Origin: Schmidtea nova
Lineage: Eukaryota
Direction of reading: 5' to 3'
NCBI GenBank assembly: GCA_044892505.1
Contig: CM097882.1
Span: 336,350,001-336,414,000 of the forward strand
Length of the DNA stretch: 64,000 bases
Below, piece after piece: positions 1 through 22,056 of this stretch (position 1 is its first letter; each line of letters starts with the position of its first letter). Made by a program: the position numbers and the translations under genes. The notes under the pieces were generated by a model that was not told where the DNA came from, searched no databases, and saw only the letters and a program-made list of their open reading frames with translations.

Positions 1-1236
1 TAAAATCAATAATGTTTAAGTTAAAAAATTGTATTATTGTGAATTTATGGTGCCTTTTAAAGTAAAATTTGGTATACTATTTTAAAATAATATTATATTT
101 CATCTAGTGACAATCAATTTATTTTCACATGAAATTCAAAGATTATTATATTTCGTCTAGCAAAACATTTAAGTATTTTAATTAAAATAATTAATTGTTA
201 CCCTTGTGTATGATAAAAACCATTTTACATAAAAAGTAAAAATGCAAATAAAGTACATATATTAAATTCAGCACTAAGAAAAGATATTGGTAAGCAGTAT
301 TTGTCACTGACATGGATGACCACAACGCTGGTTTATTGGAGTCATGATCATTAGACATTGTCGCGGATTGTTGATTAATTGGGATTTGTCGATTGGATTA
401 ATTGTTTTGGATAATTGTTAGATATTCAAATCTGTCAAATAGATTAAAGTGATAAGACGTTGTTGCTAAGATTTCCGAACTAAGTTTCCATCTGTGTTTT
501 TGAAATTGAGGGCTATGAAAAGAATTAAGTTCAGCAGATCACTTAACTTAAAAATTTACTTGTTTTGCCAATAGAGAGAAATGATTTGCGTAGAAAATTA
601 TGCTTGGTGAATTTGAATGGTGTTCGGCTTGTTGTTGATTGAATGATGGATTGAAACAAATTGTTTCGGAATATCAATTAGTTATAAAAGTAAATTAGTT
701 ATAAATATAAAAATGAAAATAGAAAAAAAACCCTAATGTAGCATTAAAATATTTTCACAAATTAAGAATTAAAGTTTTGATTTTATCGTAAATGCAAATG
801 TAAATTAAAAATTTTATTTTAGAATACTTTCATTAATAATTAACATAAATTATAATATAAGTAAAATTTAATGTTTTATTAGTGTTTTGATGCTCGGAAT
901 GATTTATTTGAATGCAATAATAAATTTATAGTTAGGTAGAATATTAATGTTGAATTGCCGATAAAATTTTGTTGAATGCTTAAAGATAAATCGTCGAAGA
1001 AGGGGACAAAATGGGCAAGAAACCTTCTATCGGTAGCCCTTGGACCCAGGAGATATTCGGTCAATCATAGTTTCGTATTGACGACGCTCACTGATTGCGA
1101 ATACCCACCCACTTGTTACAGTACCAACGTTACATAGTGACGGGTAACAAGGTGGTAATTTCAATATTTTATGTGTTGGGTTGTTGATGAGAGCCATGGT
1201 AACGTCAAGGTCGTATTGACAATCAACAACCCACCA
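1..1236 (+). repeat. 3' part of the 5' LTR (truncated by the window start)
   Basis: No mismatch or indel found by eye versus 20807-22042; identity stops exactly at ...CAACAACCCACCA. Confidence 0.85.
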
Positions 1237-1246
1237 TATAAAAATT

Positions 1247-1264
1247 TGGGGGCTCAGCCGGGAA
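1247..1264 (+). promoter_or_regulatory. Primer-binding site, tRNA-Pro-like
   Basis: TGGGGGCTCAGCCGGGAA versus the canonical tRNA-Pro PBS TGGGGGCTCGTCCGGGAT (15/18), 10 nt after the LTR end. Confidence 0.75.
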
Positions 1265-1509
1265 ATCTCATCTAGTTTGTTTTGTTTGAAGCGAAAATCA
1301 ATGGAAATGACTGTACGCGGGAGATTATCTCATCTAGTTTGTTTTGTTTGAAGCGAAAATCAATGGAAATGACTGTACGCGGGATATTATCTCATCTAGT
1401 TTGTTTTGTTTGAAGCGAAAATCAATGGAAATGACTGTACGCGGGATATTATCTCATCTAGTTTGTTTTGTTTGAAGCGAAAATCAATGGAAATGACTTT
1501 ACGTGGGAG
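1265..1509. repeat. Tandem repeat, 62-bp unit x4
   Basis: CTCATCTAGTTTGTTTTGTTTGAAGCG... recurs at 1267, 1329, 1391 and 1453. Confidence 0.95.
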
Positions 1510-1943
1510 TTTGTTAATGTTTTTGCGTTGGAAAGATAAAAGTATTTTAAAGAAAAACGAGATTTGGTGAAAGTTTTATAAAAATCGATAATCATTTGAG
1601 TGTTTTCGACGAAAATGGGAAAAAGTTTGTGTTTGATTATTAATATTATATTGCTATTATTATTTTTGCGACATTTTGTACCATTATGGGTATTATTGTT
1701 GGGATTATGATTGTNNNNNNNNNNNNNNNNNNNNNNNNNNNNNNNNNNNNNNNNNNNNNNNNNNNNNNNNNNNNNNNNNNNNNNNNNNNNNNNNNNNNNN
1801 NNNNNNNNNNNNNNNNNNNNNNNNNNNNNNNNNNNNNNNNNNNNNNNNNNNNNNNNNNNNNNNNNNNNNNNNNNNNNNNNNNNNNNNNNAGCAAGATTTT
1901 ATTATTATTATTATTATCATTATTATTATTATTATTATTATTA

Positions 1944-1988
<45 letters not shown>

Positions 1989-2659
1989 GTGACAATGCTA
2001 TTATAAGTAGAGAATATTGTTTTGAGTACCATTTTAAATTGAGATTTGAAAAAAAAAAATTTTGGAAAATAAAAAGTCCCGAATCAGGATCACCGCGAAA
2101 GCGAATAAAAGTTAAGCCGAAAAAACGATCTTTAAGCCCCACGAGCAGCCAACGATTGAAATTGAGAGCGAATAATAACAACAGAGCGTAGAATAAGTGT
2201 CTTTGATACAAATGAACGTCAGACATAGCATGGGATAAAGAGTTGAGCCGGAATGGGCCAAAAGTCTAAGAAAATCACGGCTAAAATAGTAAAAACACCA
2301 AACCGCGACAAATGAATCCCACAAACAACCAAAAATCGTAAAATTGTTCAAATAACGTCCATAAAGCGTAGAAAGTGGGTACACCGCACCGGCAAGTGAA
2401 AAATACCTCGAAAGATAGAATGTGACAACGGAATCCGCAAAAGTGTAGAAAATCGCCGCTAAGAAATTTAAAAGATTGAAGAAATTACGGAATTTTGACC
2501 CAAGAAAGCAGTAACACCAAGTAATAATGATAGTATAGGTATCAGGATTATTATTATTGTCATTTTAACAGTAGAAACAGTAATTTGGTCAAATAATATA
2601 AAAATAAGACGGATTTATTATATCTTTATTATAATTATTACGTAATAATATATAAGAAA

Positions 2660-2865
2660 TATATTGAGTAAATTGCCGTATAACGCGCATTATTATCATT
2701 ATTATTATAATTATTATTATTACTATTATTATTATCATTTTAGTTATTATTAGTAGTAGTACTATAAGCATCTTAGTATAATTATTCTTATTATAATTAT
2801 TATAATTATTATTATTATTACTGTTATTATCATGAGTGTTACTGTAGATGTCATTATTATTACTA
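2660..2865. repeat. Degenerate (TAT)n microsatellite (similar tracts flank the N-gap at 1715-1889)
   Basis: Visible ATT/TAT runs. Confidence 0.85.
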
Positions 2866-3819: not shown

Positions 3820-4302
3820 ATGGAATCGATTGAGCATATTTTACTACGAATCGAGTCGTTTTTCGATTTTGAGAATGACCCATTGCGGGTGTTGAGTGAG
3901 AAACTTGAACGAGTAAATGGAATAAAAGATGAGTTATTGTTGAATCCTAGACCACAACCTGAGAACCTAATAGTGATTGCAGGAATTGTAGGAACAACAA
4001 ACGATGTTTCGTTAGAAACAATTTACGAATTACAACGATTGCGACTGAATAATCCAAATTTTAATCTAAAAATACAAGAATGGATTGGTAAAATCGATAA
4101 AATCATGGACAAGCTAGAGAGATCGATAAATCAACAGATCGATTCGTTTGAAGGATGCTATATTTGTCGACAAAAAGAAGCGAACATTTTGTTCATGCCA
4201 TGTGGGCATTTGTGTTATTGCCAGCCGTGCTCTAGAGAAATAAAGCGATGCGTAATCTGCAAACAGACAATTGATGACAAAATCGTCGTATTCTGTTCGT
4301 AA
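3820..4302 (+). CDS. 160-aa protein with a C-terminal IAP/MDM2-type RING finger (putative E3 ligase)
   Basis: CYICRQKEANILFMPCGHLCYCQPCSREIKRCVICK; TTTTAG lies immediately before the ATG; intact ORF. Confidence 0.85.
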   Translation: MESIEHILLRIESFFDFENDPLRVLSEKLERVNGIKDELLLNPRPQPENLIVIAGIVGTTNDVSLETIYELQRLRLNNPNFNLKIQEWIGKIDKIMDKLERSINQQIDSFEGCYICRQKEANILFMPCGHLCYCQPCSREIKRCVICKQTIDDKIVVFCS

Positions 4303-5200: not shown

Positions 5201-5343
5201 GGTAGTTAAGGAATCGATTCATAATTGAGAAGTAGTAGAACAATTTGAGAAAAACAGTCAGCAACAGCGAATTTAGTTAAAAATTTGAGAATAGGGAAAC
5301 GAGTGATTGAATAGCATAAAGAGAATAATCGAAGACGGCCGAG

Positions 5344-6118
5344 AAAAATTGAGAAACTTTGAGAGTTCATGTATGTGAGAGACTTTGAGAGTCCAGAAAA
5401 TTGAGAAACTTTGAGAGTTCATGTATGTGAGAGACTTTGAGAGTCCAGAAAATTGAGAAACTTTGAGAGTTCATGTATGTGAGAGACTTTGAGAGTCCAG
5501 AAAATTGAGAAACTTTGAGAGTTCATGTATGTGAGAGACTTTGAGAGTCCAGAAAATTGAGAAACTTTGAGAGTTCATGTATGTGAGAGACTTTGAGAGT
5601 CCAGAAAATTGAGAAACTTTGAGAGTTCATGTATGTGAGAGACTTTGAGAGTCCAGAAAATTGAGAAACTTTGAGAGTTCATGTATGTGAGAGACTTTGA
5701 GAGTCCAGAAAATTGAGAAACTTTGAGAGTTCATGTATGTGAGAGACTTTGAGAGTCCAGATAATTGAGAGACTTTGAGAGTCCAGATAATTGAGAGACT
5801 TTGAGAGTCCAGGTAATTTAGAGACTTTGAGAGTCCAGGTAATTTAGAGACTTTGAGAGTCCAGATAATTGAGAGACTTTGAGAGTCCAGATAATTGAGA
5901 GACTTTGAGAGTCCAGGTAATTTAGAGACTTTGAGAGTCCAGATAATTGAGCGCTCTGGGAGAGACTTTGAGAGTCCAGATAATTGAGAGACTTTGAGAG
6001 TCCAGATAATTGAGAAACTTTGAGAGTTCATGTATGGGAGAGACTTTGAGAGTCCAATGTTTGTGAAAATTGAGAAACTTTGAGAGTTCATGTATGCGAA
6101 AGACTTTGAGAGTCCAAT
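5344..6118. repeat. Minisatellite: about 30 x 26-bp monomers, the left part organised as a 52-bp dimer
   Basis: Core ACTTTGAGAG; GAAAATTGAGAAACTTTGAGAGTTCA + TGTATGTGAGAGACTTTGAGAGTCCA repeats with period 52 (5395 to 5447); 26-bp variants follow after 5760. Confidence 0.95.
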
Positions 6119-6886
6119 GTTTGTGAATATTGTCGAGAAATTTAGGAAAAACGTTTGAGAAATAGAATTAAATAAAACTGCAGTTATAATTTTGTTATGA
6201 TAGAGAGAAACGTTGAACGCGAATACTTAAGATGTAGTAAGAGAAACCGTTAACAAGAGCAGACAAAGATATCGAGAAATACCTAAGAAATAAAATAATG
6301 GCCATGAATAGATAATGAACAAGACATTTTTTTTATAACCTCGAATGCCGAGATGAATATGAAAACGAGTCGACAGGATCCTATTATTATTATAGTATTA
6401 TTATTGTTATTATTATTGTTATTATCAGGGTATAGATAACTGATACGACCATATAGATAATTATTACGAGATATAGATAATTTAAAATCTGAGCTCAGAA
6501 TAAAAGGGGGGTAAATGGCGTCGATGAAGAAGCGATATTTTTATTTAGATTGTCCAACAGATCAAAGTCAAGCCAAGAGATAGTCAAATCAATCAGTTAT
6601 TGAAGAGGTATATATAGAAGAAAAGAAGAAAAAGAAGTCTAATTGAAAAGGAAAGAAGTAAAAGAAAATAAATCAAAGAAGATCCAATTGAAGATAAACG
6701 AGAGATCAGCAATCGATATTAAACGCAAATTGATAATACTACCAAACCAACCAAGTTCGTAAAGTCGAAAGATAAAGAGTCAAATCTATTAAAAACGACG
6801 AAAGGAAATTACAAAGAAACAAAGCTGATAAATAAAGAAGAAAAATCCACAATATTTGAAAGTTTGTAGCCGATTTTCAGAAAGAA

Positions 6887-9800
6887 ATGGAGGAGAATCA
6901 GAAAGTTACCAGTGCAAACTCAGAAGATAATTTATTAGAAGAAGAGCAGAAAATAACCAGCCCAAACGTAGAAGATAATTTACAGGAAGAAGAAAAAGAA
7001 GTAGTAACAATGAAAATGCAACTACAACGGAATATCGAAGGAAAAGTAAATGAAATGATAACCGAATTATCAGACGTTGAAATCGAAAGAAAGGGAAATG
7101 TATATGAATTTTCAGTAAAAGATATGGAGGGAGAAGAAAAGAAGAAGTTTGTGGAGAAATATAACCGAAAAAGAAGAGAAAGAAGAAGCAATGATGATAC
7201 CTGTAGCATGGACGAGAAATGGGATGAATCTACGACAATCAAATTAGAAGAAGTGGCACAAAGATTGTTAAACATTACCATAGAAGAAATGGCGAAAATG
7301 AATCAGAAATCGGAAGAAAAGAGGAAATCAGCGAAGCTCGAAAGATTAAGACAAACAGAAACGTCAAAGACCGAACGATTAATCAGTAACTTAAGCAAGC
7401 GTGCAGGAAATCAATGTGAAACAACAACTGAATTACTAAAATGGGTTATAAAAAATAGTGCAAATATATCCAACATGAGATTGATAGTGAAAGAAATCGA
7501 GAAATGCAGACGTTTATGCCCTTGGTATTCAACACAATTTGATGACATCATGAGAAAATGGAAACAACTGGAACAAACAAATGATGATCCACAGATGTGC
7601 AGATTGGAAATTCAGTTTCCGAGTCTAGAAGAAATAAAGATGAATGTAGCATTAACAACAAAGATCAAAGAGATAAAAGAGAGATTACCATTCAATTTAC
7701 CATTTCACTTGAAATATGATGGAGAATCGCTGGATGATGATATAGAAATCGGTGTAACCCCGATACAAATCGAAACAAGTAATAATTTAACTGTCGATAA
7801 AATTGCAGGAAGCGAGTTGACCAGAAAAGCGAGAGGTGAAGATGACCCCGAGACAACGATAATTGCAATGATGAAAACTCCAGCTGGACCAACACTTACA
7901 AGTAACATCGAAGTTAATGGCGTAAAAATAGACGCGATGATAGATACTGGCGCAAATATATCAGCAATAGATATCGATATGATACCAGAAATGTTACGGC
8001 TATGCATCGAGAAAACATCAGTAGACGTAATAACATGCAGCAAAGAATCTGTTAATATCGTTGGAAAGATATGGACAGACATCGAATACAGAAATGTAAA
8101 AATATCAACTTATTTGACAGTAATAAAACAACTGGGTGCCTCATGCATTATTGGAACAGACTTAATACCAAAACTGTTAAAAGGATCTGTAATTGATTTG
8201 AATACGATGAAGTTGGAACACCAAATTGAAGAGAATTACACAAGAGAAACAATGATAGAACAATCAAATCCAGAAACAACCAGAAAAGGACAAGTATATA
8301 TGTTTCGAGAGAATAAAAATGATGATTGGTTACATCGTATATTAACTACGAGCAGAAAAGTAAATCAGCCAACAACAATATCTGAACAACCTAAGGTAGT
8401 TGACGATGTAAAAATGGAGCACCGCAAAAAGATGGAATTGATCATTGAGATTACCAAAGAAATTATGCCAGAATGGTCAAAAAGTAAAAATCTATTTGAA
8501 ATATTGGGAGGAGCAAGCTTAATGGTTGAGGAATATGCCAAAGGAAATGAGACGACAGAAGCGATGAATACCATAAAAGAAAGATTACCAATACTATTTA
8601 CAATTGCCAGTTTTAAAGATGAGATACCATTATATCACGTAATAAAAAGTGGGAATGAACAGAGAATGTTTGAAATCATAAAACTCATGGAAAAGTGTAA
8701 ACAACATACCAACACGAAAAACTGGAAAGATCAAACACCCTTGATGGTAGCAATTGAAAAAGGAGGATCCAAGAAACTCATAGCAGAACTGATGAGAACC
8801 GGATCAAGTTTTAAAGAAAGAGATGATAAAAATGAAACGGTGTTATCATATGCAGTGCAAGCAAATAACCATCAAATAATCAAATATATTATGTCAAATG
8901 CGACAGAAGAAGATATTGAAGTGCTCAGTTCAGATCCAAATCCATTAGTAAATGCAGTGAACAAAGATGCAGACGAAACAACAGCCAAAATGATTAAATG
9001 GTTACATCCAGTTACGCACGAAGGAGTGATAAATGTCAATGACAGATTTGAAGACGGTGAAAATATGATAATGAAAAGAGCCATGAAAAGAAAATGGAAA
9101 ATGTATAAAACGATTAAAGCATTGCTGCGAAGACCTGATTTCAAATTTACAAACAACAAAAAAGAAAAAGAAAGAATTGGATCTAAAAGACATGAATTAT
9201 ATCAGCAAGTCATCATATGGAAAGAACATATAAAAGAAAGCAGAATTCACCGAAGTTGGAACAATGCCAAAGATGAGATAACCAAGAGAGCAAATATAAA
9301 AGCCGAAGCAGATGAAATAGCTAAAAGGTACGAGGAAATAATAAAATTAATAAATGTCGAGGACGACATTTTAATCAGAACCGAGGGTGGTGCTGATGAG
9401 CACAATGAGCCTGACGATGAAGATGAAGGGAATAACAACAACAAAACAAAGAAAGATGACAATGAAAGTATCAACAGAAACAATGACAAAGACGAGAAAG
9501 ACGATGGAAAAAGCAATAACGATGAAATTGGGAACAAAGGTGATGAACCCAAGCAAGAAACTTCAAATTATGAAAAACGAACAGCATGTCTACATAAAAC
9601 TCGAATAAAAGACATAATATTGCTGAAACTGAGGCTGTCAACATTGAAAGGAACGGAAGCCGATGATAAAAGAAAACCAGTACAAGTATTAACATCAGGA
9701 GCAGATAATAAAGAAGCATGTTGGAGTAGCATCAATTTGCAAAGTAAAGGAGATAATCCAGTCAAAAGTCAACGAGCAGAAGGAGGAGAAATCCGAATAA

Positions 9801-9997
9801 ATGGATTAAAACGAGAAACAAAATATAAAATCTGTGTTTACAAAAAGAAAGCATCACAAGAAATGTTTAGAACACTCGTATGTCAGATAGTAACACATAA
9901 TGGTTCAAAAGTCACCCAAGAAGACATAAAAGTCATATTAACCGACGAGCCAGATGAGAACATCAGGATGTCGTCGAAACGCAAGTTGTCAGAGTAA
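6887..9997 (+). CDS. 1036-aa multidomain protein: charged N-terminus, ubiquitin-like domain (?), retropepsin-type aspartic protease, ankyrin repeats, D/N-rich linker, possible FN3-like C-terminus
   Basis: IEVNGVKIDAMIDTGANISAI (DTG at 7943) plus IIGTDL; ankyrin repeats KDQTPLMVAIEKG and KNETVLSYAVQANN; Ubl-like LEIQFPS...TKIKEIKERL...LKYDGESLDDD; FN3-like IRINGLKRETKYKICV. Confidence 0.85.
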   Translation: MEENQKVTSANSEDNLLEEEQKITSPNVEDNLQEEEKEVVTMKMQLQRNIEGKVNEMITELSDVEIERKGNVYEFSVKDMEGEEKKKFVEKYNRKRRERRSNDDTCSMDEKWDESTTIKLEEVAQRLLNITIEEMAKMNQKSEEKRKSAKLERLRQTETSKTERLISNLSKRAGNQCETTTELLKWVIKNSANISNMRLIVKEIEKCRRLCPWYSTQFDDIMRKWKQLEQTNDDPQMCRLEIQFPSLEEIKMNVALTTKIKEIKERLPFNLPFHLKYDGESLDDDIEIGVTPIQIETSNNLTVDKIAGSELTRKARGEDDPETTIIAMMKTPAGPTLTSNIEVNGVKIDAMIDTGANISAIDIDMIPEMLRLCIEKTSVDVITCSKESVNIVGKIWTDIEYRNVKISTYLTVIKQLGASCIIGTDLIPKLLKGSVIDLNTMKLEHQIEENYTRETMIEQSNPETTRKGQVYMFRENKNDDWLHRILTTSRKVNQPTTISEQPKVVDDVKMEHRKKMELIIEITKEIMPEWSKSKNLFEILGGASLMVEEYAKGNETTEAMNTIKERLPILFTIASFKDEIPLYHVIKSGNEQRMFEIIKLMEKCKQHTNTKNWKDQTPLMVAIEKGGSKKLIAELMRTGSSFKERDDKNETVLSYAVQANNHQIIKYIMSNATEEDIEVLSSDPNPLVNAVNKDADETTAKMIKWLHPVTHEGVINVNDRFEDGENMIMKRAMKRKWKMYKTIKALLRRPDFKFTNNKKEKERIGSKRHELYQQVIIWKEHIKESRIHRSWNNAKDEITKRANIKAEADEIAKRYEEIIKLINVEDDILIRTEGGADEHNEPDDEDEGNNNNKTKKDDNESINRNNDKDEKDDGKSNNDEIGNKGDEPKQETSNYEKRTACLHKTRIKDIILLKLRLSTLKGTEADDKRKPVQVLTSGADNKEACWSSINLQSKGDNPVKSQRAEGGEIRINGLKRETKYKICVYKKKASQEMFRTLVCQIVTHNGSKVTQEDIKVILTDEPDENIRMSSKRKLSE

Positions 9998-10149
9998 CCA
10001 GTGGAAGGAACAGTGTATATAGTGTATAAAATTATATTGTATTATAAAAGTAGAATATATTTGTATAATAAAAATTTAAAAATCCAAAAAATTGAATACC
10101 TAAAAACTGGGAAAAACAAATGATAATATTGTGTAATTATTTGACAGAA

Positions 10150-10785
10150 ATGAATCCGAACAACGAGAGTCAAAGTTATCAAACATCAGTTCCAACGTTC
10201 AATGAACCATCAAATCAAATTCAGTTTCCAGAAGATACCAATATACGAGAAAGAGAAAGGTCACTGCAGACCCCAGTAATCGAAAATGAAACGCAAAATC
10301 CAACAATTGATGATAGAAATCTGATATACCAAGTCGAAATTCCACTGTTTGATGAAACCATGAACCCAATTCAAACGACATTCGTATTAAATCAACAACT
10401 AACAAATAGCCAGACTCAATCAATATCAGCTCCGATGGTTTATCAGCAGACAATGACGCAAGAGTTATCATGGAAAACGCAATGTGAATTATTAAGCAGG
10501 ATGTTGAATCAAGCCTACGCACAATGGAAAAACGAACAAGCTTTGTTAACAGAAAGTGTAAACAGAAATTTATTATATCTTGCTAAAATGGAAGAACAAC
10601 AACAAATGATAATCCAAAAGGACCAGAGAATTGAATGGTTAACAAGACATACGGAGTGGCAAACAAACGAAATCAGAAGATTGAATGAGACGCGAGAAGA
10701 AGTTAGAGCATGGTATAACTGGTTAGACAATTTTCCAGAACCGGTTCGAGAGCCTGACTCGACGGGAAGGGATGAACTATTATAA
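10150..10785 (+). CDS. Q/T/P-rich N-terminus plus coiled-coil protein (about 211 aa), unknown function
   Basis: Open frame 10120-10785; ATG 10150 follows TTTGACAG-AA; heptad-like Q/E/L-rich C-terminal half; contains PIQTT. Confidence 0.7.
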   Translation: MNPNNESQSYQTSVPTFNEPSNQIQFPEDTNIRERERSLQTPVIENETQNPTIDDRNLIYQVEIPLFDETMNPIQTTFVLNQQLTNSQTQSISAPMVYQQTMTQELSWKTQCELLSRMLNQAYAQWKNEQALLTESVNRNLLYLAKMEEQQQMIIQKDQRIEWLTRHTEWQTNEIRRLNETREEVRAWYNWLDNFPEPVREPDSTGRDELL

Positions 10786-10879
10786 AAATTTAAAACCAGT
10801 GTAAATAAAATGTAAAAATGTGAATATGAATAAAACTTGGTATAAAGAGCAGAATGAAAAAATTGTAAATTATTTTAGA

Positions 10880-12283
10880 ATGCAGACCGAGAATCAGCAG
10901 AAACAAGAAGAATTGATCGAACTATATCAGATACTACAGAGACAACGGATAGAACCAACAGAATTTCAAGAAAGATTTAAATGTAAAGTATGTAGAAATT
11001 TATTGATAGAACCCAGACAAACTGAATGTGGATGTCGAATATGCACTAATTGCGTGACGAAAGTAATACGAACAAAACAGAAGCTATGTCCTGAATGTGG
11101 TGAAGCAATAATAGACCAATTTGACCAAACCAGACCAGATATCGCAATGAATCGGGAAATAATGAACGCAGCAACAACCTGTCCAAACAAACCATGTGTA
11201 TGGAGTGGGCCAATAAAATGGATCGCCAAACACCTTTATAATTGTGATGATACGAAAGCTAAATGCAAGTGGTGTGAAGAAGAAATGTTGAAGAAAGTCA
11301 AAGATAGTCATGAGGAAATGTGTGAACAACGACAGGAAATATGTGAGTTTTGCAACGAAACAGACGCTTGGATAGTGTTAAAAGATGAGCATTGGAATAT
11401 AGAAGAAGGGCAAGTATGTGACGAGTATGAAGGTAATTGTAATCAATGTGGAATGGCAGAAAACGTGAAGCTAAAAGAACATTGGGAAATATGCGAAAAG
11501 AAGCCTACTGCATGTCCACTAAAATTATTCAATTGCAAAGTAAGATTACCAAAAGAGGAAATACAAAAGCATGTAGATGAAAATAGTGTAAATCATTTGA
11601 GAACCGTTGTGGAAGCTATTGGAGCAACCGCACTGGTAATTGGAGAAGCCAACACAGAAATAAAATCTCACAAAATCATGATACAAGAGATGTTGGATAC
11701 GAGAGGAAATTTTGAAAGAATAAGAGAACAAATGATCCAAAAAATGATACTATTAGACCAGAAAATAGCAGAAATATCAACAATCCAACAAAGATTGGAA
11801 AGCATATTGCCAACAATGGAAGAACTACCCGTCACACCCTACTATTGGAAAATCACAGAATTTACAGAGAAATTGAGACTAGCAAGAGAAGGAGGTCAAC
11901 GTGTATGGACAAGTCCACCTTGTCATAGTTGGAAACATGGTTACAAGCTTAGATTCAAAGTATATCTAACGGGAGACGGACTAGGAGCCGGAACTCATTT
12001 ATCTGTATATTTTCAAATATGTAAAGGAGATTATGACGATTGGTTAGAATGGCCCTACGATTGCGATATAGCTATGAGGATCGGAACAAAGGAAAACAAC
12101 GTTCGGGAAGTATTCAGACCAAACTTGAAGAAGGTAGAAGCAGCTTATAAGAAGCCGATCGAAAACTACAACGTAGCTGTAGGAAATCCACGTTTTATTG
12201 CATTACATTATTTAACCACAGAACAATCATTATATTTGGTAAATAATATCCTGTATCTGATTATCGAAGTGAGGAAGCCGTAG
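10880..12283 (+). CDS. TRAF-family protein (RING, TRAF zinc fingers, coiled coil, MATH), TRAF2/3/5-like
   Basis: RING CKVCRNLLIEPRQTECGCRICTNC...CPEC; CPNKPCVWSG zinc finger; MATH YYWKITEF...GYKLRFKVYLTGDGLGAGTHLSVYF...LEWPY. Probable start 10880 after TTTTAG-A. Confidence 0.93.
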   Translation: MQTENQQKQEELIELYQILQRQRIEPTEFQERFKCKVCRNLLIEPRQTECGCRICTNCVTKVIRTKQKLCPECGEAIIDQFDQTRPDIAMNREIMNAATTCPNKPCVWSGPIKWIAKHLYNCDDTKAKCKWCEEEMLKKVKDSHEEMCEQRQEICEFCNETDAWIVLKDEHWNIEEGQVCDEYEGNCNQCGMAENVKLKEHWEICEKKPTACPLKLFNCKVRLPKEEIQKHVDENSVNHLRTVVEAIGATALVIGEANTEIKSHKIMIQEMLDTRGNFERIREQMIQKMILLDQKIAEISTIQQRLESILPTMEELPVTPYYWKITEFTEKLRLAREGGQRVWTSPPCHSWKHGYKLRFKVYLTGDGLGAGTHLSVYFQICKGDYDDWLEWPYDCDIAMRIGTKENNVREVFRPNLKKVEAAYKKPIENYNVAVGNPRFIALHYLTTEQSLYLVNNILYLIIEVRKP

Positions 12284-12502: not shown

Positions 12503-13672
12503 ATGACTGAAAGGAAGATCGTGAAAATACGAGAAGATGACAGATCATTCAAAAGTTTGTGCGAATTAATGAAAAGAGGTAAAGAAAAGAAGTCAAAACC
12601 AATTACCTCAGAATTGATTTATTGCCAATTTACACGAACAATATCAAATGTCCCCAAGGAAAGAAATTATGGCAAATTCAAAACTATCGATGAAACGTTG
12701 AAAAATGAGAACCGAAGATATATAACCTTTCTACAACAAGACAATTTCTATGAGAAGCAATACAGAAAATTCGCCAAAGAGGGTTTGTATTTTGCAGGGA
12801 CAATCGAGAAACCCGATAAAGTAACTTGTGTATTTTGCAGAATTGAAATAGAACCTTGGAGAATTAACGATGATCTACTAACAGAACATAGAAAACTTTC
12901 ACCCACATGCCCGTTTGTGTTAAAGGCATACGAAAAACCAAGAAAACCAGCAACAATGAACAATGATGAAGAAGAAAAACCCAAAATAGTAACGATAACT
13001 TCAACAGGTCCAGCAAAGATACGATTCATAGAAATTGATCCAAAATATACGATTAATGGGAGAACTGACACCTTTGCAGATAAAAAGATGGGTATCAGAT
13101 TAGCAATAGAAGGTTTTTATGCAATAAATGAATCAACCGCTGAATGTTCAGAGTGTGGAATACAATATCAATTACCAAAAGAAGAAGGAGAATACCTGAA
13201 ACACAACGAATATTGTAAATATGGAGAAGAATTATATGAAGACGAAGAACCGATCAATTATAAAAACCCAGAGATGCCTGTTAATGAATTATTAGTAGAT
13301 AAGATATTAGACGAACCACGAACTCAAAAGGCAATGGAACGTACCGGCAAAAGCGAAATATTTGTGAAAGAAGTTATCAGAGAGAGATTGAGAAGAAATG
13401 GAGAAACATTTGGATCAACCCTAGAATTTTTCAAAGCTATAATACAGTTCACCAGAAAATCTAAAGTTGTCAACCCAGAATCATGTATCAAGAAAGTTAT
13501 ATTAAATAAACACCCCTGTTCAATCTGTTGGATAAAGAAAGTGGAAGTTATTCATTTACCGTGTGGACATCTGTTGGCATGTGAAAATTGTAGCAATAAA
13601 TTGAGATTGTGCTCAATGTGCAGGAAACCGGTCGACAAACGGATCAAGGGATTTCGTTATGCCGATCAATAA
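12503..13672 (+). CDS. Inhibitor-of-apoptosis (IAP/BIRC-like) protein: BIR, degenerate second BIR, C-terminal RING
   Basis: BIR FAKEGLYF...DKVTCVFC...W...DDLLTEHRKLSPTCPFV; second R.TF...LAIEGFY...CSEC...H...C; RING CSICWIKKVEVIHLPCGHLLACENC...CSMCR. Confidence 0.93.
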   Translation: MTERKIVKIREDDRSFKSLCELMKRGKEKKSKPITSELIYCQFTRTISNVPKERNYGKFKTIDETLKNENRRYITFLQQDNFYEKQYRKFAKEGLYFAGTIEKPDKVTCVFCRIEIEPWRINDDLLTEHRKLSPTCPFVLKAYEKPRKPATMNNDEEEKPKIVTITSTGPAKIRFIEIDPKYTINGRTDTFADKKMGIRLAIEGFYAINESTAECSECGIQYQLPKEEGEYLKHNEYCKYGEELYEDEEPINYKNPEMPVNELLVDKILDEPRTQKAMERTGKSEIFVKEVIRERLRRNGETFGSTLEFFKAIIQFTRKSKVVNPESCIKKVILNKHPCSICWIKKVEVIHLPCGHLLACENCSNKLRLCSMCRKPVDKRIKGFRYADQ

Positions 13673-13806: not shown

Positions 13807-15354
13807 ATGAATATACAACAATTGATAAACATCCTAGATCAGGAGATGGCCAAAAGACAAGAACAACTAAATCAAATGAGAAATTATGAACAAAGAATGG
13901 AAGCCATCCAAGAGAACGTTAAAATGATTGAGAAACGAACCCAAGAGATCAATAAAATAAAAGAGGAAAATGAGGAACTACGAAAAATAATAATCGACAA
14001 GGCACATATCGAAGCTGAACTAGACAATTATAAACGAGAGTACAGGGAAATGGAGAGAAAACTCGAGCACGAACAACGGAAGTCGGTACCGTTGAAAAAT
14101 CAAGCGAGATTAAGAAAAGAAGAGCTCGAAACTTATAAAAGAGATACCGAAACAAGGTACGACAACTCCATAAGATTCTATCAGCAGCAACTCGAAAGTG
14201 AAAGAAACAGATATGAAGCCATGAAAAAGAAATGGGAAAAGTGTCGAGATGAAGCATTTGTTTTGAGAGGACAACCTCAAAAGAAGCTTAAAGTCAGAAC
14301 AAGAAACATTGAACCTGAAAGCGAACAAGAAAAGATCATTAGAAAAGTTAAAGCAGAGGCTAGGAAATGGAAACAAGAACATCAAGATTTATTGGAAATG
14401 GCTCGACACAGAAAAATGCTACACGAAGAATTATTAAGACGGAGAGACGTTCAAATCGAGGCTCTGAAAGAGGAATGTCATTGGTATGCAGACATACGTC
14501 ATGAGGAAACGGAGAAACTCAGAAAAGAAATATTCCAGTTGAAAACGAGCGGGCAATTCAGAGAACGAAGCATAAAGCATCAAATAAAGTGGCTAAAAGA
14601 ACAAGCCAGAACATGGAAAAAGACCTGGAAAAGAACTCGAGACGAACTACGAGAATTCCCAAAGAAGCTGATGTCAATAAATGAAGCAGAATTGTGGGAA
14701 AATGCAGAAAAGCAAGAGATAGAAAACAAAGAATTAAGACGGCAAGTTCAATTAAAAACTGAATGGAATCAAAGGAGAATGAAATTTACCAGGAATCAAG
14801 AAGCTCGTATCAAATATCTGGAATTTGAAAATAGGCAATATGATCAACAGAAAAACATGGACGATAGAAGTATTGAAGAATTGACAATCGAATTGACTAT
14901 TGCAAACCGTGAAGTCAACGGATATCGAGGAACAAATACGCATAAAGACATTGTCATTCAACACCAGCGACGGCAGATAGAAGAAACAAAGGCCGAATGT
15001 GAGAAAGCGATCCAGCAATCGCAGTATGAGATTGAAATGGCTATCCAAAGTTTGGAAGAAAATCGCCAAAACTATGAAAGAGAGATTGAAAGGTTGAAAA
15101 ATATGGAAAATACAAGAGAGCTCGAGATAGAAAAGGAACAGCTGAGTGAAGAACTCGATTACATGACATATTTGCTAGATGAAGAGATAGAAATCTCAAG
15201 AACTTTACGAGAGAGAGTTCAGAGCCTACAAAATCAACCTCCAATAATTCTATGGCCACTATATCCAACACCAATACAACCTGTACATTTGGAGCAAGAA
15301 AATCCTCAAATCGAAGATGAAGGGTTCGGAGAAATTGAAGAGACGTTTGTATAA
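13807..15354 (+). CDS. 515-aa long coiled-coil protein with a Pro/acidic tail, unknown function
   Basis: Intact E/K/R/Q-rich ORF; TTTCAG-G precedes the ATG. Confidence 0.8.
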   Translation: MNIQQLINILDQEMAKRQEQLNQMRNYEQRMEAIQENVKMIEKRTQEINKIKEENEELRKIIIDKAHIEAELDNYKREYREMERKLEHEQRKSVPLKNQARLRKEELETYKRDTETRYDNSIRFYQQQLESERNRYEAMKKKWEKCRDEAFVLRGQPQKKLKVRTRNIEPESEQEKIIRKVKAEARKWKQEHQDLLEMARHRKMLHEELLRRRDVQIEALKEECHWYADIRHEETEKLRKEIFQLKTSGQFRERSIKHQIKWLKEQARTWKKTWKRTRDELREFPKKLMSINEAELWENAEKQEIENKELRRQVQLKTEWNQRRMKFTRNQEARIKYLEFENRQYDQQKNMDDRSIEELTIELTIANREVNGYRGTNTHKDIVIQHQRRQIEETKAECEKAIQQSQYEIEMAIQSLEENRQNYEREIERLKNMENTRELEIEKEQLSEELDYMTYLLDEEIEISRTLRERVQSLQNQPPIILWPLYPTPIQPVHLEQENPQIEDEGFGEIEETFV

Positions 15355-15445: not shown

Positions 15446-15492
<47 letters not shown>

Positions 15493-15656: not shown

Positions 15657-16232
15657 ATGAGATTATTGAAGCAAAGATCAGAACCAGAACAACAAACGAT
15701 ATCAAAAGAAAGATTCAAAAAATGGAAAAGGGCAACAGAGCAATATTATCAAGACCAAATAGACCAATTGAAGGAAGTAGTGAGCAAAGATAGAAAATAT
15801 ATCGCGCAAATGGAGCAAGAGTGCGAGACGATGGAAATAATCAAGCGAGAAAATTATTTATTTCGCCAACAAAACGGTCTCACCCAAAAATATTGCGACA
15901 GACAGAAGCAAGAGATTGACAGACTCAAGAAGGAAATAAGCAGTGAACAGAACACTGATAATAAAAGGAGAATTAAGATCGAGTCACTACAACGATCATT
16001 GAAGAACAAACAGAAAAAGATTATCAAAAGAGAAAAACAGATAATAAAGTTGAAAAGTGAAATCATAGAAGCAAAATTCGATACGTTCAAAGCAAAGAAA
16101 GTTGTAGAAATCAAAACGGCAGAAAATTACGTCCTCAAAGAGCAAAGGCGAAAAGAAGCAGACGAGATTGCAAAAATGGGTAACTGGAAGCCAGAAAGTC
16201 CGCTAAAGCTAAATGAAGAGACGAAAGAATAA
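15657..16232 (+). CDS. 191-aa basic coiled-coil protein, unknown function
   Basis: Intact ORF; TTATAG-AAA precedes the ATG. Confidence 0.7.
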   Translation: MRLLKQRSEPEQQTISKERFKKWKRATEQYYQDQIDQLKEVVSKDRKYIAQMEQECETMEIIKRENYLFRQQNGLTQKYCDRQKQEIDRLKKEISSEQNTDNKRRIKIESLQRSLKNKQKKIIKREKQIIKLKSEIIEAKFDTFKAKKVVEIKTAENYVLKEQRRKEADEIAKMGNWKPESPLKLNEETKE

Positions 16233-16327: not shown

Positions 16328-17152
16328 ATGAGCAATCTAATGAGGATCACAACAACCATCGTGATAGCTATAATTACAAACTGCCGAAGCGAAGAAGCAT
16401 TGAGCCAATGTCAAGCAAGCCATCCATTTAGAAGATCCGATAGCATTTGTGCAAGCTATCAAGAAATTTGTATCACCAGAAATGAGGAGTGTCAACAGAT
16501 CCAACTACAATGTCAACAATGTCCAAAATCCAGAGAAGATTCAATCACTATTCTTAAACAGCTAAAAAACGAAACCCAACAATTAATCCAACTACAAATC
16601 TCCTTAACCCAAAGGAACAATCTTCAACTAAAGAAACAACTCGAAAGCCAATCATCCTTCAAACAGTTAACAACCGAACTAAAGAAATTGAGCAAGTTAA
16701 TAGAAAAATCTCTAAATAATAAAGATGAAGTTAATGAGGAAAGATCAAGTTTCACAGAAGAGTTAAATCAAAAACTGAAAAGTCAACTTCATCAGACCGA
16801 GAGAATTATAAAACAATTGATATTACCCGAAAAGCAAAGGGAGATTATCCCTAAACAAGGATCAACCAACAAAGACGTCAGAGACCGAGAAGCAGCCATC
16901 ACAGTCGTTCTACAAGGCCTCAGTCTTTTCACGGTCATAATGATCCTTAGCATTGTTGCATCAATCGGAGTAGAAAAAATGAAATTAGAGAAAGCAAAAA
17001 TCCAGTTGAATACCATTAAACGAATCACCCATGAAGACAACAACCCGTCAGAGAATTTTCTAAGATCAATATTTGAAGATCCAGTTCCAGAACCTCCTAA
17101 TCCTGAGACATCTACAACCTCGGTGCAGATGAATTATTTCTATAAACAATAA
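16328..17152 (+). CDS. 274-aa predicted type-I membrane protein (signal peptide, 6-Cys segment, coiled coil, TM, cytoplasmic tail)
   Basis: N-terminal ITTTIVIAIITNC; six Cys within residues about 27-65; hydrophobic AAITVVLQGLSLFTVIMILSIVASIGV; Pro-rich tail. Confidence 0.75.
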   Translation: MSNLMRITTTIVIAIITNCRSEEALSQCQASHPFRRSDSICASYQEICITRNEECQQIQLQCQQCPKSREDSITILKQLKNETQQLIQLQISLTQRNNLQLKKQLESQSSFKQLTTELKKLSKLIEKSLNNKDEVNEERSSFTEELNQKLKSQLHQTERIIKQLILPEKQREIIPKQGSTNKDVRDREAAITVVLQGLSLFTVIMILSIVASIGVEKMKLEKAKIQLNTIKRITHEDNNPSENFLRSIFEDPVPEPPNPETSTTSVQMNYFYKQ

Positions 17153-17744
17153 TACGATTCGATTCGACAACTCATGTATTTTCTTCCATTCATTTAATCT
17201 ATCCATCTAGTTGTATCCTCATCTTTAACAATACTTCAGCATCATTTAAATCATGACCCTGTGTAAAAATCGTAATGCCCCTGTAAATGGCCAATTAAAC
17301 CCAAATCAACAATGTAATAAAGAATCATTTGAAATCCCGAAGAGAAGATGACAAGAAACCGTTGATCAATACCGAGTCCTTCAAACTATTCCAGTCGAAG
17401 ATCCCACCAATTCAATAATAGAATTGATAATTCAACAAACTTAATAAACTTGGTAAAACTTTTATCCGAGTCGTTGTAGACTCATATTGAACTTTGATTA
17501 GCCGCTGTAGGCACATATATTACATTTAATTTTTTTTTGCGAGTCGATGTAGACTCATATTTATGTATATGTATAATTTTATTAATTTTTTTTATAAACT
17601 TTTTATTTTTATTGTCGCGAATGGCATGATCACGACCAAGTAGCTCGTGTATAATGTACAACCTTTTGACCTTTGATTAGTCTTGGTTCTTAACCCCTCT
17701 GAGAAATTGCGGGACGCAATTTTTGCGGGCCCCCGAGTATTTTA

Positions 17745-20700
17745 TGTTGGGCCAAAACCCAATTTGTTTTAATAAAGCGATAACCCCATAGGTAGAGAAC
17801 GCGCAAGATTCCATTTTAACCTTTGCTTCCATTAAAAAAATCCAACAATTAAGCGGAAAACACCAAAAGGTGAAGATGAATCAAAACACAGCAACCGGTA
17901 GAATGCGCGCTAACTGCGAATTTATAGATATTTCCACTGAAATCTCGAGAAAAATTAAAAGCAGAATGTTTGGAAGCTAGAATAGGCAAAAAACCCATGG
18001 AAAGTGCCCATAAAGAACAGAATTTTATCATAAAACCTTCAAGTGCAGAAAAACTAACACAATTCTAGAGGAAAATTGTGAATTTATCACAAAATTTCAC
18101 ATATAACAATAGAAAGAATTAATATGGATCGAAAATCATAAATTAAATCAAATCGAACAAATTTCGATTCAAACATAGAAATTTTGAATAAAAATAAATT
18201 ATTTATAGTTTATAAAAAATTATTATACAAAAATATGGAATTAATTTTCGGAAAATCATTAGAATTAATTTAGAAAAAATTAAGAGAAACTTCTAGAACA
18301 ATTTGTTTTATTGCACTACCGGAGATAGAGAAAATTTGATGGTATATATACCGCCATCAAAATGGCAGATTAGACAGAATTTTGTGGAAAATTTTTCTTG
18401 ATTAATTTGCGGAGAAATTGCGAAAAATAATTTTTGTGAAATCCAACTTGAGAATTTGATTGCAAGAAGAAAAGCTAATTTGATTTCAAGAAGAGAAGAG
18501 AAAAGCTAATATCAGAATTTGATTCCAAGAAGTTACTATCAGAAGTTGATTCCAAGAAAATTTGTGGAAAATTCGTTCCAAATTTCTAAGAAAAAATTAA
18601 TTTGTTTGAAAGAAATCGTAGCAGAAGTTAATTGGACAAACGTAAGGATTTGTTTGATTTTGGTTATTCTCATTGGGGATTGGAATGGTCGTCCATCATG
18701 CCTGACGATCATCCCATTCCCCCCTTTTTTATTTAATATGTTATTTGTCATTTTATTTATTATGGTCAATTTTATATTATTAAAGTATTTTCATGATTAA
18801 TAACTTAGTTTTTTTTTTTTTTTTTTGTTGTCATAATCATTATCACGAGCCACAATTTCCCAAAATAATTCAGGAAAGATCTCATTGAAATTCGAAAACT
18901 AAATTAAATTATGAAAATAAATAAAAATTTTTTTTTTTTATCTCCCATATCTTCTGACGATCCGTCCAGCCTTGGTTGTGCGGATCTGTTAGTAGCCTGG
19001 GTGGATCGTTGTCTGATTGGTAATCGGCCAGCCCATATTTCCACTTTAAGGTGAGGCTCATACATCCAAATTCGCGTCATCCCAACTGGGGAATCGCGGT
19101 TTGACCAAGAGCAAGGTTTTGTTATACTAATGATTTGTATTATAATAGAGTATCATATTTTTATTATCTACATAAGCAATTTCGTAATACAACATAATAA
19201 TTTCTACCTCATGTCTTGAAATCTAAAATAGGAAATATTATTGATTAAAAAGTCGACTCGTACTCACCTTCGCCTTCACACTCTCAACAACGTTCATCTC
19301 ATAAGAAAATGCAAGAAAAATGGATGCTGATGATGAAAAGAAAATGGTTCGAAATAATGCTCAAAGTCTAGAATAATGCTCATGAAGTGAAACAAATTGT
19401 GAAACAAGTATTGATTTAATCTGAATTAAAGCTCATTATGGTCTAAATAAGTTTTCCTGTGAATCTTGTTTTTCGAGAGCCTGAAATTCCTAAGTGAAGT
19501 GTCCCGAAAAATTCGCGTACACTTGGTTGGGAAATTCATGCTCAACAAAACCGAAATTTACTTTGCTTGAGGTTAAAAATATTCGCTGAAAAATTTGTAA
19601 CTTATTTTTATTTTATTTTTATTTAGCATATAAAATTTTTTAGATTAAATGCTTATTTAGATCTCGAATTTATGGATAAAAATTTATTATCATTTCATTT
19701 GGATCAGAAATAGAAATTTGCTTTTTATTATGTTGAAAAGATTTTATATGGAAAAATTGTAAACCAAATTTGGTTCCTAATGTTATTAATATATGAAAGA
19801 TTTTATCATTTCGTAAAATTCCCGAGAATTTGAAAATCAAAAGTTATATTAAACCCCATGAAAATTTAGATTGAAATTTTATTATTATATTAATAAATTT
19901 TATTATTTTATAAAAAATCTCAATTCGAGATTTTATAGAAATTTTTTTTATCTATTCTTAAAGTATAAAAATTGTAAATTCAAATCGACATTATAAAAAA
20001 TTATAAACCTTATCGTTAATTGTTTTTCGTAGAAATTTTAAAACTTAAAAATTTGTAAAAAAGTATTATGAGAATTGTTATTATTATTTCGATCTAAAAA
20101 TTATTATTATTATCTTGATCTAAAAATCATTACCATTAGTTTAATTTTAAATTTTTTTTTTATGTTAACTTAAAAAATATTTTATACAATTTATTTAATT
20201 TATAATATAACCCCCCACGACATCTTAAAATAATAATACATCACTCATTGCAAAGATTTACACCCTTTTCACTCAATAGCATCATCCATATTAATATACA
20301 AACAACATACACATAAAATACAATACACACACATGCACAGTACCATTCAATAACATCCAACAATCACATACACACCAACAAACCTTATCAAAATTCCACA
20401 CAGACATTCTAGTTAGAATCGTTCATCTAACCACACTCATAAGCACTCAATTGTTTTAAATCACTCATCATACAATCACACACAAACACAACAGTAACAA
20501 TAGGACACACAGTCATCATACTACACCTCATCCACCAATAAATTATTTACTCTCATCCAACATTCAAGTCAACATACAGACACATATAATCACATACAAT
20601 CTCCCGCACTATCAATGAAAAATTCATAATAAACCTGTAAAAGTGTATCAACAATCAAGCTCGAAATGATAGTATCCCACATCATACGTAAACATGCATA

Positions 20701-22042
20701 CCTCCAAAAAGACAATGCCAAGGTTTCATCCATTCACCCACCACAAACATTTGGTGTGGAACCTTTTTATTTGTAACGGATATTAGGAAGTTTTCAAGAT
20801 TGCCTTTAAAATCAATAATGTTTAAGTTAAAAAATTGTATTATTGTGAATTTATGGTGCCTTTTAAAGTAAAATTTGGTATACTATTTTAAAATAATATT
20901 ATATTTCATCTAGTGACAATCAATTTATTTTCACATGAAATTCAAAGATTATTATATTTCGTCTAGCAAAACATTTAAGTATTTTAATTAAAATAATTAA
21001 TTGTTACCCTTGTGTATGATAAAAACCATTTTACATAAAAAGTAAAAATGCAAATAAAGTACATATATTAAATTCAGCACTAAGAAAAGATATTGGTAAG
21101 CAGTATTTGTCACTGACATGGATGACCACAACGCTGGTTTATTGGAGTCATGATCATTAGACATTGTCGCGGATTGTTGATTAATTGGGATTTGTCGATT
21201 GGATTAATTGTTTTGGATAATTGTTAGATATTCAAATCTGTCAAATAGATTAAAGTGATAAGACGTTGTTGCTAAGATTTCCGAACTAAGTTTCCATCTG
21301 TGTTTTTGAAATTGAGGGCTATGAAAAGAATTAAGTTCAGCAGATCACTTAACTTAAAAATTTACTTGTTTTGCCAATAGAGAGAAATGATTTGCGTAGA
21401 AAATTATGCTTGGTGAATTTGAATGGTGTTCGGCTTGTTGTTGATTGAATGATGGATTGAAACAAATTGTTTCGGAATATCAATTAGTTATAAAAGTAAA
21501 TTAGTTATAAATATAAAAATGAAAATAGAAAAAAAACCCTAATGTAGCATTAAAATATTTTCACAAATTAAGAATTAAAGTTTTGATTTTATCGTAAATG
21601 CAAATGTAAATTAAAAATTTTATTTTAGAATACTTTCATTAATAATTAACATAAATTATAATATAAGTAAAATTTAATGTTTTATTAGTGTTTTGATGCT
21701 CGGAATGATTTATTTGAATGCAATAATAAATTTATAGTTAGGTAGAATATTAATGTTGAATTGCCGATAAAATTTTGTTGAATGCTTAAAGATAAATCGT
21801 CGAAGAAGGGGACAAAATGGGCAAGAAACCTTCTATCGGTAGCCCTTGGACCCAGGAGATATTCGGTCAATCATAGTTTCGTATTGACGACGCTCACTGA
21901 TTGCGAATACCCACCCACTTGTTACAGTACCAACGTTACATAGTGACGGGTAACAAGGTGGTAATTTCAATATTTTATGTGTTGGGTTGTTGATGAGAGC
22001 CATGGTAACGTCAAGGTCGTATTGACAATCAACAACCCACCA
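17745..22042 (+). repeat. Complete 3' LTR, 4298 bp (family A)
   Basis: Starts TGTTGGGC at the same point where homology to 22057-26006 begins; ends CCCACCA; its last 1236 bp match 1-1236. Confidence 0.8.
18343..18350 (+). promoter_or_regulatory. Candidate LTR TATA box
   Basis: TATATATA in GATGGTATATATACCGCCATC; conserved at the aligned position of the sister LTR (22703-22710). Confidence 0.45.
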
Positions 22043-22056
22043 CAATTAATTAAATT

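Follow-up and report, generated by a model that had tools for sequence, protein, structure and literature searches.

The window analyzed here is a stretch of 64,000 nucleotides from the 1.25-Gb genome of the planarian Schmidtea nova (assembly GCA_044892505.1, contig CM097882.1; G000:C1:336350001-336414000, forward strand), studied together with the 10 kb located upstream (L001). It contains most of a long terminal repeat (LTR) retrotransposon of 25,104 bp with a 16.5-kb interior, hereafter called the satellite, that encodes eight proteins but no replication enzyme other than a protease. The 5′ LTR begins with TGTTGGG 3,062 nt upstream of the window (L001:6939; G000:C1:336346939). The two LTRs, each of 4,298 bp, show 0 differences and 0 gaps, and the repeat ends precisely at both LTR boundaries. 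An earlier interpretation made from the letters of the window alone (the sequence-only reading) had proposed a TG...CA direct repeat with 4.3-kb LTRs and had seen 0 differences over 1,236 bp (positions 1-1236 and 20807-22042); this identity extends to the whole LTR (0/4,298). It had also proposed that the upstream repeat would start at TGTTGGG without running past it, that a target site duplication (TSD) would be found, and that the element has an imperfect 7-bp terminal inverted repeat and a primer binding site (PBS) resembling that for tRNA-Pro. All these features are present: the ends TGTTGGG...CCCACCA match at six of seven positions, the 4-bp sequence CAAT directly borders the element on both sides, and 17 of 18 nt of the PBS are complementary to the 3′ end of the tRNA-Pro(TGG) of the host genome plus CCA. 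The PBS lies 10 nt past the 5′ LTR, an unusually long spacer. Genes for tRNA-Pro(TGG) are repeated every 308 bp in a long tandem array (G000:C1:459.6 Mb, L059-L063), and their pattern has 1,772 matches with at most one mismatch. The 175-N stretch of the leader (1715-1889), where a pol might have been suspected, cannot hide one since the same interval is only 176 nt long in sibling copy A.

Table 1. Features of the satellite element in the window (positions are those of the window)
Feature	Position	Strand	Evidence
3′ part of 5′ LTR (whole 4,298 bp)	1..1236	+	Identity to 3′ LTR; CAAT before it
10-nt spacer from LTR end to PBS, common to the helper	1237..1246	+	Junction matches genome-wide
PBS for tRNA-Pro(TGG)	1247..1263	+	17/18 nt to tRNA-Pro 3′ end + CCA
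Leader tandem repeat, about 4 copies of a 62-nt unit	1265..1508	+	Repeat family D11
ORF1, 160 aa, IAP-type RING	3820..4302	+	Pfam zf-C3HC4_3, E 1e-13; acceptor-like TAG directly before ATG
26/52-nt tandem array, also present in the helper leader	5340..6130	+	Repeat families D1, D7
ORF2, 1,036 aa, internally deleted Burro polyprotein	6887..9997	+	Pfam; helper alignment
ORF3, 221 aa, likely start at second ATG (10150); homologue in F-type cassette (38%)	10120..10785	+	
ORF4, full-length TRAF (RING, zf-TRAF, linker, MATH), likely start at second ATG (10880)	10826..12283	+	Pfam
ORF5, 389 aa, BIR + RING, IAP-like	12503..13672	+	Pfam BIR, E 2e-15
ORF6, 515 aa, charged, coiled-coil-like by eye	13807..15354	+	
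ORF7, 191 aa, basic, coiled-coil-like	15657..16232	+	
ORF8, 274 aa, predicted type I membrane protein	16328..17152	+	Hydropathy scan
3′ LTR, 4,298 bp, TGTTGGG...CCCACCA	17745..22042	+	Identity to 5′ LTR
TSD CAAT, 3′ copy; other copy directly before 5′ LTR	22043..22046	+	Flank comparison

The interior carries eight uninterrupted open reading frames (ORFs) on the plus strand, 9,837 nt in total when counted from the first ATGs, with stop-to-first-ATG spacers of 40-302 nt from ORF2 to ORF8 (Table 1). Their earlier description as eight uninterrupted and intronless ORFs is correct for the first term; the second has to be qualified because an acceptor-like site lies at the 5′ end of each ORF. As that reading had noticed, a protease is the sole retro-like enzyme: Pfam detected no reverse transcriptase (RT), RNase H (RH) or integrase (IN) in any of the eight ORFs, and gag and env are also absent by comparison with the helper described below (no match to its Gag capsid (CA) and nucleocapsid (NC) regions). 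Neither BCL2-like nor Smc domains were found by Pfam in the ORFs of the window.

ORF2 aligns to four separate segments of the helper polyprotein, namely the post-nucleocapsid linker (41% identity), a segment following MATH (53%), the protease (66%) and the ankyrin/C-terminal region (40%), and is devoid of Gag CA/NC, MATH, Env, RT, RH, IN and the transmembrane tail, with the reading frame preserved. Its protease (retroviral protease in Pfam, E 6e-5) has a DTG motif; a motif search matched 17 proteases among the sampled satellites and helpers, and all 17 keep it. The ankyrins are also detected by Pfam. The second segment contains a SUMO-like domain (PF11976, E 0.014), whose predicted structure (pLDDT 82) has Rad60 SLD2 as its best fold match; this assignment replaces an initial BCL2-like candidate. 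A SUMO-like motif occupies the corresponding position in Burro1 according to the Burro section of PMC6431247. The single-sequence fold of the N-terminal half of ORF2 was unusable (pLDDT 41), and the atlas search with residues 145-320 gave no usable match. A word-matching search of a protein database returned only two ankyrin-family proteins for the ORF2 region and no matches for TRAF, and thus no named Burro sequence.

Among the other products, ORF4 has TRAF1/5/2 (E 1e-23) and ORF5 has BIRC2/cIAP1 as best PDB matches. ORF6 belongs to a small family (11 clusters) that occurs in nearly all satellite subtypes; its assignment to intermediate filaments was abandoned, as no Pfam or PDB match supports it. 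ORF8 has a hydrophobic N-terminus and a Cys cluster by eye, and a hydrophobic segment from residue 188 in the hydropathy scan. An atlas search gave a weak match to the TNF receptor Grindelwald (score 0.76), to be taken as a lead only, and a complex prediction between the ORF8 tail and the TRAF MATH domain gave no answer in either direction (score 0.00). ORF8 is not an env, since the helper env is a fusion-glycoprotein domain within the polyprotein, and the satellite lacks it.

Genome-wide counts of 22-mer markers with at most one mismatch (controls, 0) yielded 1,944 matches for ORF6, 1,220 for TRAF and 246 for the helper RT, and the exact LTR-end/PBS junction is found 2,233 times (control, 0). 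The satellite family comprises about 1,900 copies compared to about 250 for the autonomous helper, a ratio of about 8:1; the interior being multi-copy, the alternative of a single-copy locus considered by the sequence-only reading fails. Fifty of the first 53 junctions on contig C1 were retrieved as 10-kb stretches (the three others, chosen earlier for spacing, were left out): 38 belong to window-type satellites, six to helper-type elements (two of them internally deleted) and one to a third family (F), while five could not be assigned. TRAF and IAP are carried by 23 of the 37 satellite copies covering this region, in agreement with the marker ratio, and ORF2 and ORF6 are near-universal. Other subtypes have either an added predicted membrane protein of 482 or 264 aa or a deletion of TRAF and IAP. 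The 482-aa ORF (L065:6563-8011), located between ORF2 and ORF3 in a subtype devoid of TRAF and IAP, has a hydrophobic N-terminus, a Cys cluster and a C-terminal hydrophobic segment, with no Pfam family over the cut-off and no PDB match. In many copies, though not in that of the window, a 264-aa ORF9 (L013:2842-3636) separates ORF8 from the 3′ LTR. Copies A and B (L002-L007) are tandem elements sharing one LTR (LTR-interior-LTR-PBS).

Ten further copies were picked for a TRAF segment about 100% identical to that of the window, a choice biased towards young copies. Each of the ten is flanked by a 4-bp TSD of its own and has only 0-3 LTR-LTR substitutions, and its LTRs differ by about 1-10% from the window LTR. 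Therefore, segmental duplication and collapse, which the earlier reading had named as possible objections, are excluded. The window copy is a fresh insertion of an old lineage; what had been described as an apparently recent element is a young insertion (0/4,298 between LTRs) but not a young lineage.

The search for pol-bearing partners revealed a Burro-type helper (RT marker, n = 246) with the same LTR ends and PBS. Its copies (E, C, L023, L027, L083 and L088) combine these ends with a giant polyprotein containing CCHC, MATH, viral fusion glycoprotein, protease (PR), RT, RH, IN, Ank and fn3 domains, and the reading frame is open across all 3,333 codons covered in L023, L027 and L088. The domain order is that of Burro elements as laid out in the Burro section of PMC6431247, including an env between gag and pol. 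ORF2 maps to this polyprotein, and the suspected kinship of the satellite with Burro is corroborated, as judged by domain layout against the description of Burro-1..4 and GYPSM1. Both LTRs were recovered for four of the 10 sampled helpers and differ by 0, 0, 7 and 8 substitutions (three with a 4-bp TSD, one within a tandem), so helpers are active or young too. In all 10 copies, only 6.1-6.3 kb separate the RT marker from the start of the 3′ LTR, an interval with neither room for the cargo nor any of its homologues, and ORF1 is interrupted in the five helper-type copies (5/5) where it was seen.

The main LTR and leader blocks of satellite and helper are 83-95% identical, whereas their proteases share only 66% of residues and differ at 38 of 81 codons for the same residue; the split between them is old while LTRs have been exchanged. 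In trees built on the first 600 and the last 450 nt of the LTRs (no support values computed), helpers and satellites interleave. The first 600 nt of the window LTR differ by 2.5% from helper 140 and by 5.5% from satellite 114. In two of 13 satellites (112 and 120), the 3′ end of the LTR diverges by 4-6% from helper 140 but by up to 14-15% from other satellites, despite a TRAF segment near-identical to that of the window. Exchange during co-packaging is the usual explanation for such interleaving and the best available sign that the helper mobilizes the satellite, which is likely an old lineage co-packaged with a Burro-type helper. The proposal of a non-autonomous, helper-mobilized element therefore stands as regards the missing core genes and the existence of a candidate helper; mobilization itself is inferred from the sharing and exchange of LTRs. 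The 20 nt located just before the 3′ LTR (17725-17744) are GC-rich and identical in the five satellites and four helpers compared, and this 20-mer and the 10-nt spacer, both also found in the helper, suggest unusual priming or end processing.

The F family, an autonomous Burro with 1,565-bp LTRs and 134 junction matches, carries the core and the cargo together. Its polyprotein, intact in one copy (4,966 aa), is preceded by an ORF1 homologue and followed, in the same order as in the window, by homologues of ORF3 (38%), TRAF (37%) and ORF6 (29%), then by a short ORF with a hydrophobic N-terminus. This cassette is found in seven of the eight F copies inspected, with protein identities to the satellite of 27-39%; these resemble the identities of the ORF2 remnants to F (25-51%), which fits a cassette inherited rather than freshly captured. 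Much of the cargo thus probably derives from an ancestral Burro accessory cassette. By parsimony, the ancestor would have had both core and cassette, the helper keeping the former and the satellite the latter; since F carries both, helper and satellite look like complementary halves of the ancestral layout. Among the F copies (L163-L182, L084, L154-L156), two have simple internal deletions sparing the cassette, possibly an early stage of the same process.

The maintenance of the cargo by selection, proposed earlier and to be judged from dN/dS between copies, was assessed on distinct single-base codon variants relative to the commonest codon of each column in 21-41 copies plus the window per ORF (kappa 4). 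The count left aside codons near indels or differing at several bases, and for ORF1 it drew on one helper-type copy as well. For variants shared by at least two copies, dN/dS of ORF1 to ORF8 is 0.31, 0.42, 0.25, 0.13, 0.25, 0.11, 0.13 and 0.29 (p ≤ 1.5e-5 versus neutrality for all eight), indicating purifying selection on every ORF (0.11-0.42). For singletons, the corresponding values are 0.77, 0.70, 0.41, 0.31, 0.47, 0.27, 0.52 and 0.69, and the contrast between shared and singleton variants is significant in seven of eight ORFs. Most frameshifts and stops affect one copy only; across all ORFs together, a single stop recurs in more than one copy, and shared variants are mostly synonymous. The lower dN/dS of shared variants and the single shared stop point to selection acting on replicating lineages and not on fixed loci.

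Concerning expression, a YAG trinucleotide ends 0, 6, 2, 1, 5, 1, 3 and 3 nt before the ATGs of ORF1 to ORF8 (taking the likely second ATGs of ORF3 and ORF4), compared to a background of 16% for ATGs of the interior and 11% for those in non-coding sequence. ORF3 of copy B begins at the second ATG, and the F-type TRAF begins near the second ATG of ORF4. In the F family, whose proteins are 26-38% identical, YAG lies 1-7 nt before the ATG in five of five accessory ORFs (background 21%). The acceptor AG is kept in 197 of 198 copy-sites; adjoining columns also vary little (2-10%). TGTA and AATAAA are 3′-end signals. TGTA occurs 26 times in the 130 nt following the stops, compared to 11 in dinucleotide shuffles (0/500 reach 26), and a TGTA...ATAAA motif follows five of the eight ORFs (0/2,000 base shuffles). 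A scan of LTR and leader for strong donors (GTRAGW only) found well-shared sites solely within the tandem array. A search for sequencing runs matching the interior listed four runs of unspecified type from one study, and none known to be RNA. Acceptors before each downstream gene, short spacers and 3′-end signals are the layout of a spliced-leader operon, and spliced-leader trans-splicing exists in Schmidtea according to the parts of PMC10899757 consulted. Single-gene mRNAs cut from one long transcript are therefore predicted. Trans-splicing of a spliced leader has a little under an even chance of being the mode, with cis-splicing from a common leader close behind, and any other mode appears improbable. 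In the portions consulted of the literature on trans-splicing and on bipartite retroelements, no matching case was found, nor any operon-like expression of LTR elements.

Other elements surround the satellite. A solo LTR of a related older family (22057-26006) lies 14 nt past it, 87% identical over the last 250 nt, and a further LTR-end fragment is found at 31699-31930. This solo-LTR family was considered as a helper and rejected, as the PBS was found in none of the 10 stretches adjoining its best matches (for the five on the minus strand, the sequence started immediately beyond the LTR end). The window also includes an interrupted conventional Gypsy-like gag-pol (37081-40546; RT YLDD motif by eye), two interrupted transposase-like ORFs identified by eye (26993-29490 and 45900-48450, the latter among 29-bp tandem and inverted repeats) and a ubiquitin-like ORF fragment on the minus strand (63150-63608).

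With two TG...CA LTRs, a TSD, a tRNA PBS, no RT or IN and an autonomous partner with the same cis ends, the satellite is a non-autonomous LTR retrotransposon. It resembles Burro/GYPSM1 elements, as portrayed in the Burro section of PMC6431247, by multi-kb LTRs and by protease, ankyrin, MATH/TRAF, BIR, RING and SUMO-like (PF11976) motifs. However, it is shorter than the >30 kb of Burro elements and lacks their single polyprotein of about 4,900-5,100 aa (Gag...Env-PR-RT-RH-IN), present in F and consistent with the open stretches of the helper, and therefore gag, env, RT, RH and IN; moreover, its regulatory domains are encoded by distinct ORFs, all of them preceded by an acceptor-like site. Since ORF2 is only a remnant of the polyprotein, the satellite is a Burro derivative and not a Burro. 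The same section describes neither a non-autonomous derivative nor a mechanism processing accessory ORFs. No description of a pol-less Burro satellite was found in the literature on Burro and planarian retrotransposons, although the figures or supplements of Grohme 2018 may hold one.

The satellite would function like the non-autonomous partners BARE-2, Dasheng and SNRE of the plant pairs BARE-1/BARE-2, RIRE2/Dasheng and soybean SARE/SNRE, which, in the text of PMC4079214 available to us, exceed 1,000 copies, share cis ends with their partner and swap LTRs with it. It differs from them in being an animal element with an env-bearing helper and about 9.8 kb of selected coding sequence, mostly for host-signalling domains that the helper lacks. 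It also resembles large retrotransposon derivatives (LARDs; PMC6431247, in part) and TR-GAGs, which are large non-autonomous LTR derivatives relocated in trans. However, in that source LARDs seldom have an interior above 10 kb and can be non-coding, while the 16.5-kb interior of the satellite carries eight genes under selection; TR-GAGs, by their usual definition, keep gag, which the satellite has lost. Replication-defective retroviruses that depend on a helper carry host-derived genes, and complex retroviruses splice their accessory genes. The satellite recalls them by its cell-fate genes in place of the core, its probable dependence on a helper and several acceptors for accessory ORFs, but differs by being a long-lived endogenous lineage with a cargo apparently inherited from its element family, and by having 3′-end motifs after each ORF and not only in the 3′ LTR.

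Taken as a whole, we assign a probability of roughly 0.78 to the view that the window carries a fresh copy of a non-autonomous element of about 1,900 copies, likely copied by a Burro helper, whose eight selected genes are predicted to be spliced and to modulate the host. The retrotransposed structure, the copy numbers, the missing core genes and the partner with the same cis ends are established and form its starting point. The tRNA-Pro would prime the satellite RNA, which would be co-packaged, reverse-transcribed and integrated by the helper, template switching within helper particles swapping LTR segments while the coding cores have long diverged. The Burro ancestor would have consisted of the polyprotein plus the accessory cassette, a layout persisting in F; the satellite would have lost most of the core through in-frame deletions and retained the cassette, while the present helper would have done the reverse. 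The long transcript would be split into single-gene mRNAs by the acceptor before and the 3′-end signals after each ORF. Finally, given the roles known for their families, the TRAF, IAP, RING and SUMO-like products may target host ubiquitin and cell-death signalling and help the cell that expresses them to survive or weaken its defence; this would raise the copy rate of the element, and the cargo genes would be maintained for that reason.

Several observations weigh against this view. Mobilization, splicing and host modulation are predictions from sequence. No canonical polypurine tract was found upstream of the 3′ LTR (17725-17744). The contrast between shared and singleton variants is not significant for ORF3 (p 0.28) and is partial overall, since singleton dN/dS is also below 1. 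The YAG before ORF3 and ORF4 fits only the second in-frame ATGs, selected post hoc; with first ATGs only, YAG is found at six of eight (p 3.7e-4). The helper polyprotein has no YAG close to its ATG, and the extra ORFs of the two variant copies examined have none within 6 nt of theirs. ORF3, ORF6, ORF7 and ORF8 have no Pfam family over the cut-off, and ORF5 (IAP), ORF7 and ORF8 have no clear F-type homologue. TRAF and IAP are missing in 14 of the 37 satellite copies, and both are therefore dispensable for satellite spread. Lastly, most of the sampling was confined to one end of a contig or to young copies.

Two other explanations agree with ours on structure, mobilization and origin, and diverge on what the cargo does. 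The satellite could be half of a two-component element, comparable to a segmented retrovirus, in which the helper gives capsid, envelope and enzymes, the satellite gives the cassette and each depends on the other. The union of core and cassette in F, the lack of the cassette in 10 of 10 helpers together with their interrupted ORF1, the selection on cassette genes in the satellite and the trade of LTR segments all fit this idea, which we hold to be possible but rather unlikely: the helper polyprotein has its own MATH domain, the 8:1 excess suits a parasite, and Burro domains move between polyprotein and accessory ORFs (Burro section of PMC6431247), so that the loss of the cassette may need no partner. 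Less probable again is its fullest version, a segmented endogenous retrovirus made of the env-bearing Burro as core segment (gag-env-pol, about 250 copies) and of an accessory segment (about 1,900 copies) bearing a survival module of TRAF, IAP and receptor-like genes that would form a spliced-leader operon, both co-packaged, trading LTRs and interdependent, and keeping host stem cells alive. Alternatively, the satellite could be a pure cis-parasite whose ORFs are selected for packaging or stability of its own RNA or for interference with the helper (protease, ankyrin or a SUMO-like decoy) and not for host cell fate. The DTG motif conserved in all sampled satellite and helper proteases, the copies lacking TRAF and IAP compared to the near-universal ORF2 and ORF6, and the difficulty of sustaining selection on trans-acting products among 1,900 copies speak for it. 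Nevertheless, TRAF is full length and among the most constrained ORFs (0.13), IAP retains BIR and RING, and TRAF/IAP domains have no known packaging role, which makes this explanation improbable.

The two remaining explanations concern the nature of the copies themselves. A host-domesticated cluster, with selection at the level of the animal and copies amounting to amplified survival genes, would account for the intact TRAF and IAP and would fit the large expansion and the expression of the TRAF family in S. mediterranea (PMC6109357, in the text seen). It is largely refuted and very unlikely, as the copies are scattered, each having its own TSD and identical LTRs, and as private frameshifts and stops with shared synonymous variants indicate selection during replication. 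As for a segmental duplication or an assembly artefact, the perfect identity of the two repeats and the N stretch could have evoked it; it is refuted by a repeat bounded exactly by LTR termini and TSD, by an LTR about 1-10% from those of other copies, hence not a collapsed repeat, and by the same architecture in 38 sampled copies. Overall, the preferred interpretation is that of a real and young element, helper-dependent by inference, with an unusually large selected cargo that complements the losses of its helper and includes TRAF and IAP proteins predicted to affect cell survival.

Non-autonomous LTR elements usually retain their cis signals while their coding sequences decay. The satellite is unusual in having no core gene but a protease and yet about 10 kb of selected coding sequence, and in outnumbering its likely helper about 8:1. 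It represents an estimated 3-4% of the genome (1,944 copies of 20-25 kb in 1.25 Gb) and has placed about 1,200 TRAF genes, with linked IAP genes, in one genome. In the portions seen of PMC11410931, large planarian genomes are attributed partly to LTR/Gypsy expansion, with the families left for future identification; this work names an expanded family of that kind. The text seen of PMC6109357 reports the planarian TRAF expansion without a link to retroelements, and our results raise the question of whether this expansion is partly retroelement cargo. They also raise that of whether a retroelement can split into complementary segments. Burro1 is silenced by PIWI and expressed upon derepression (PMC8532177, in part), a BIR domain has been reported for Burro1 of S. 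mediterranea, and a manipulation of apoptosis by Burro elements has been proposed (both in the Burro section of PMC6431247). This last question becomes approachable here, where the cassette could be silenced apart from the replication core.

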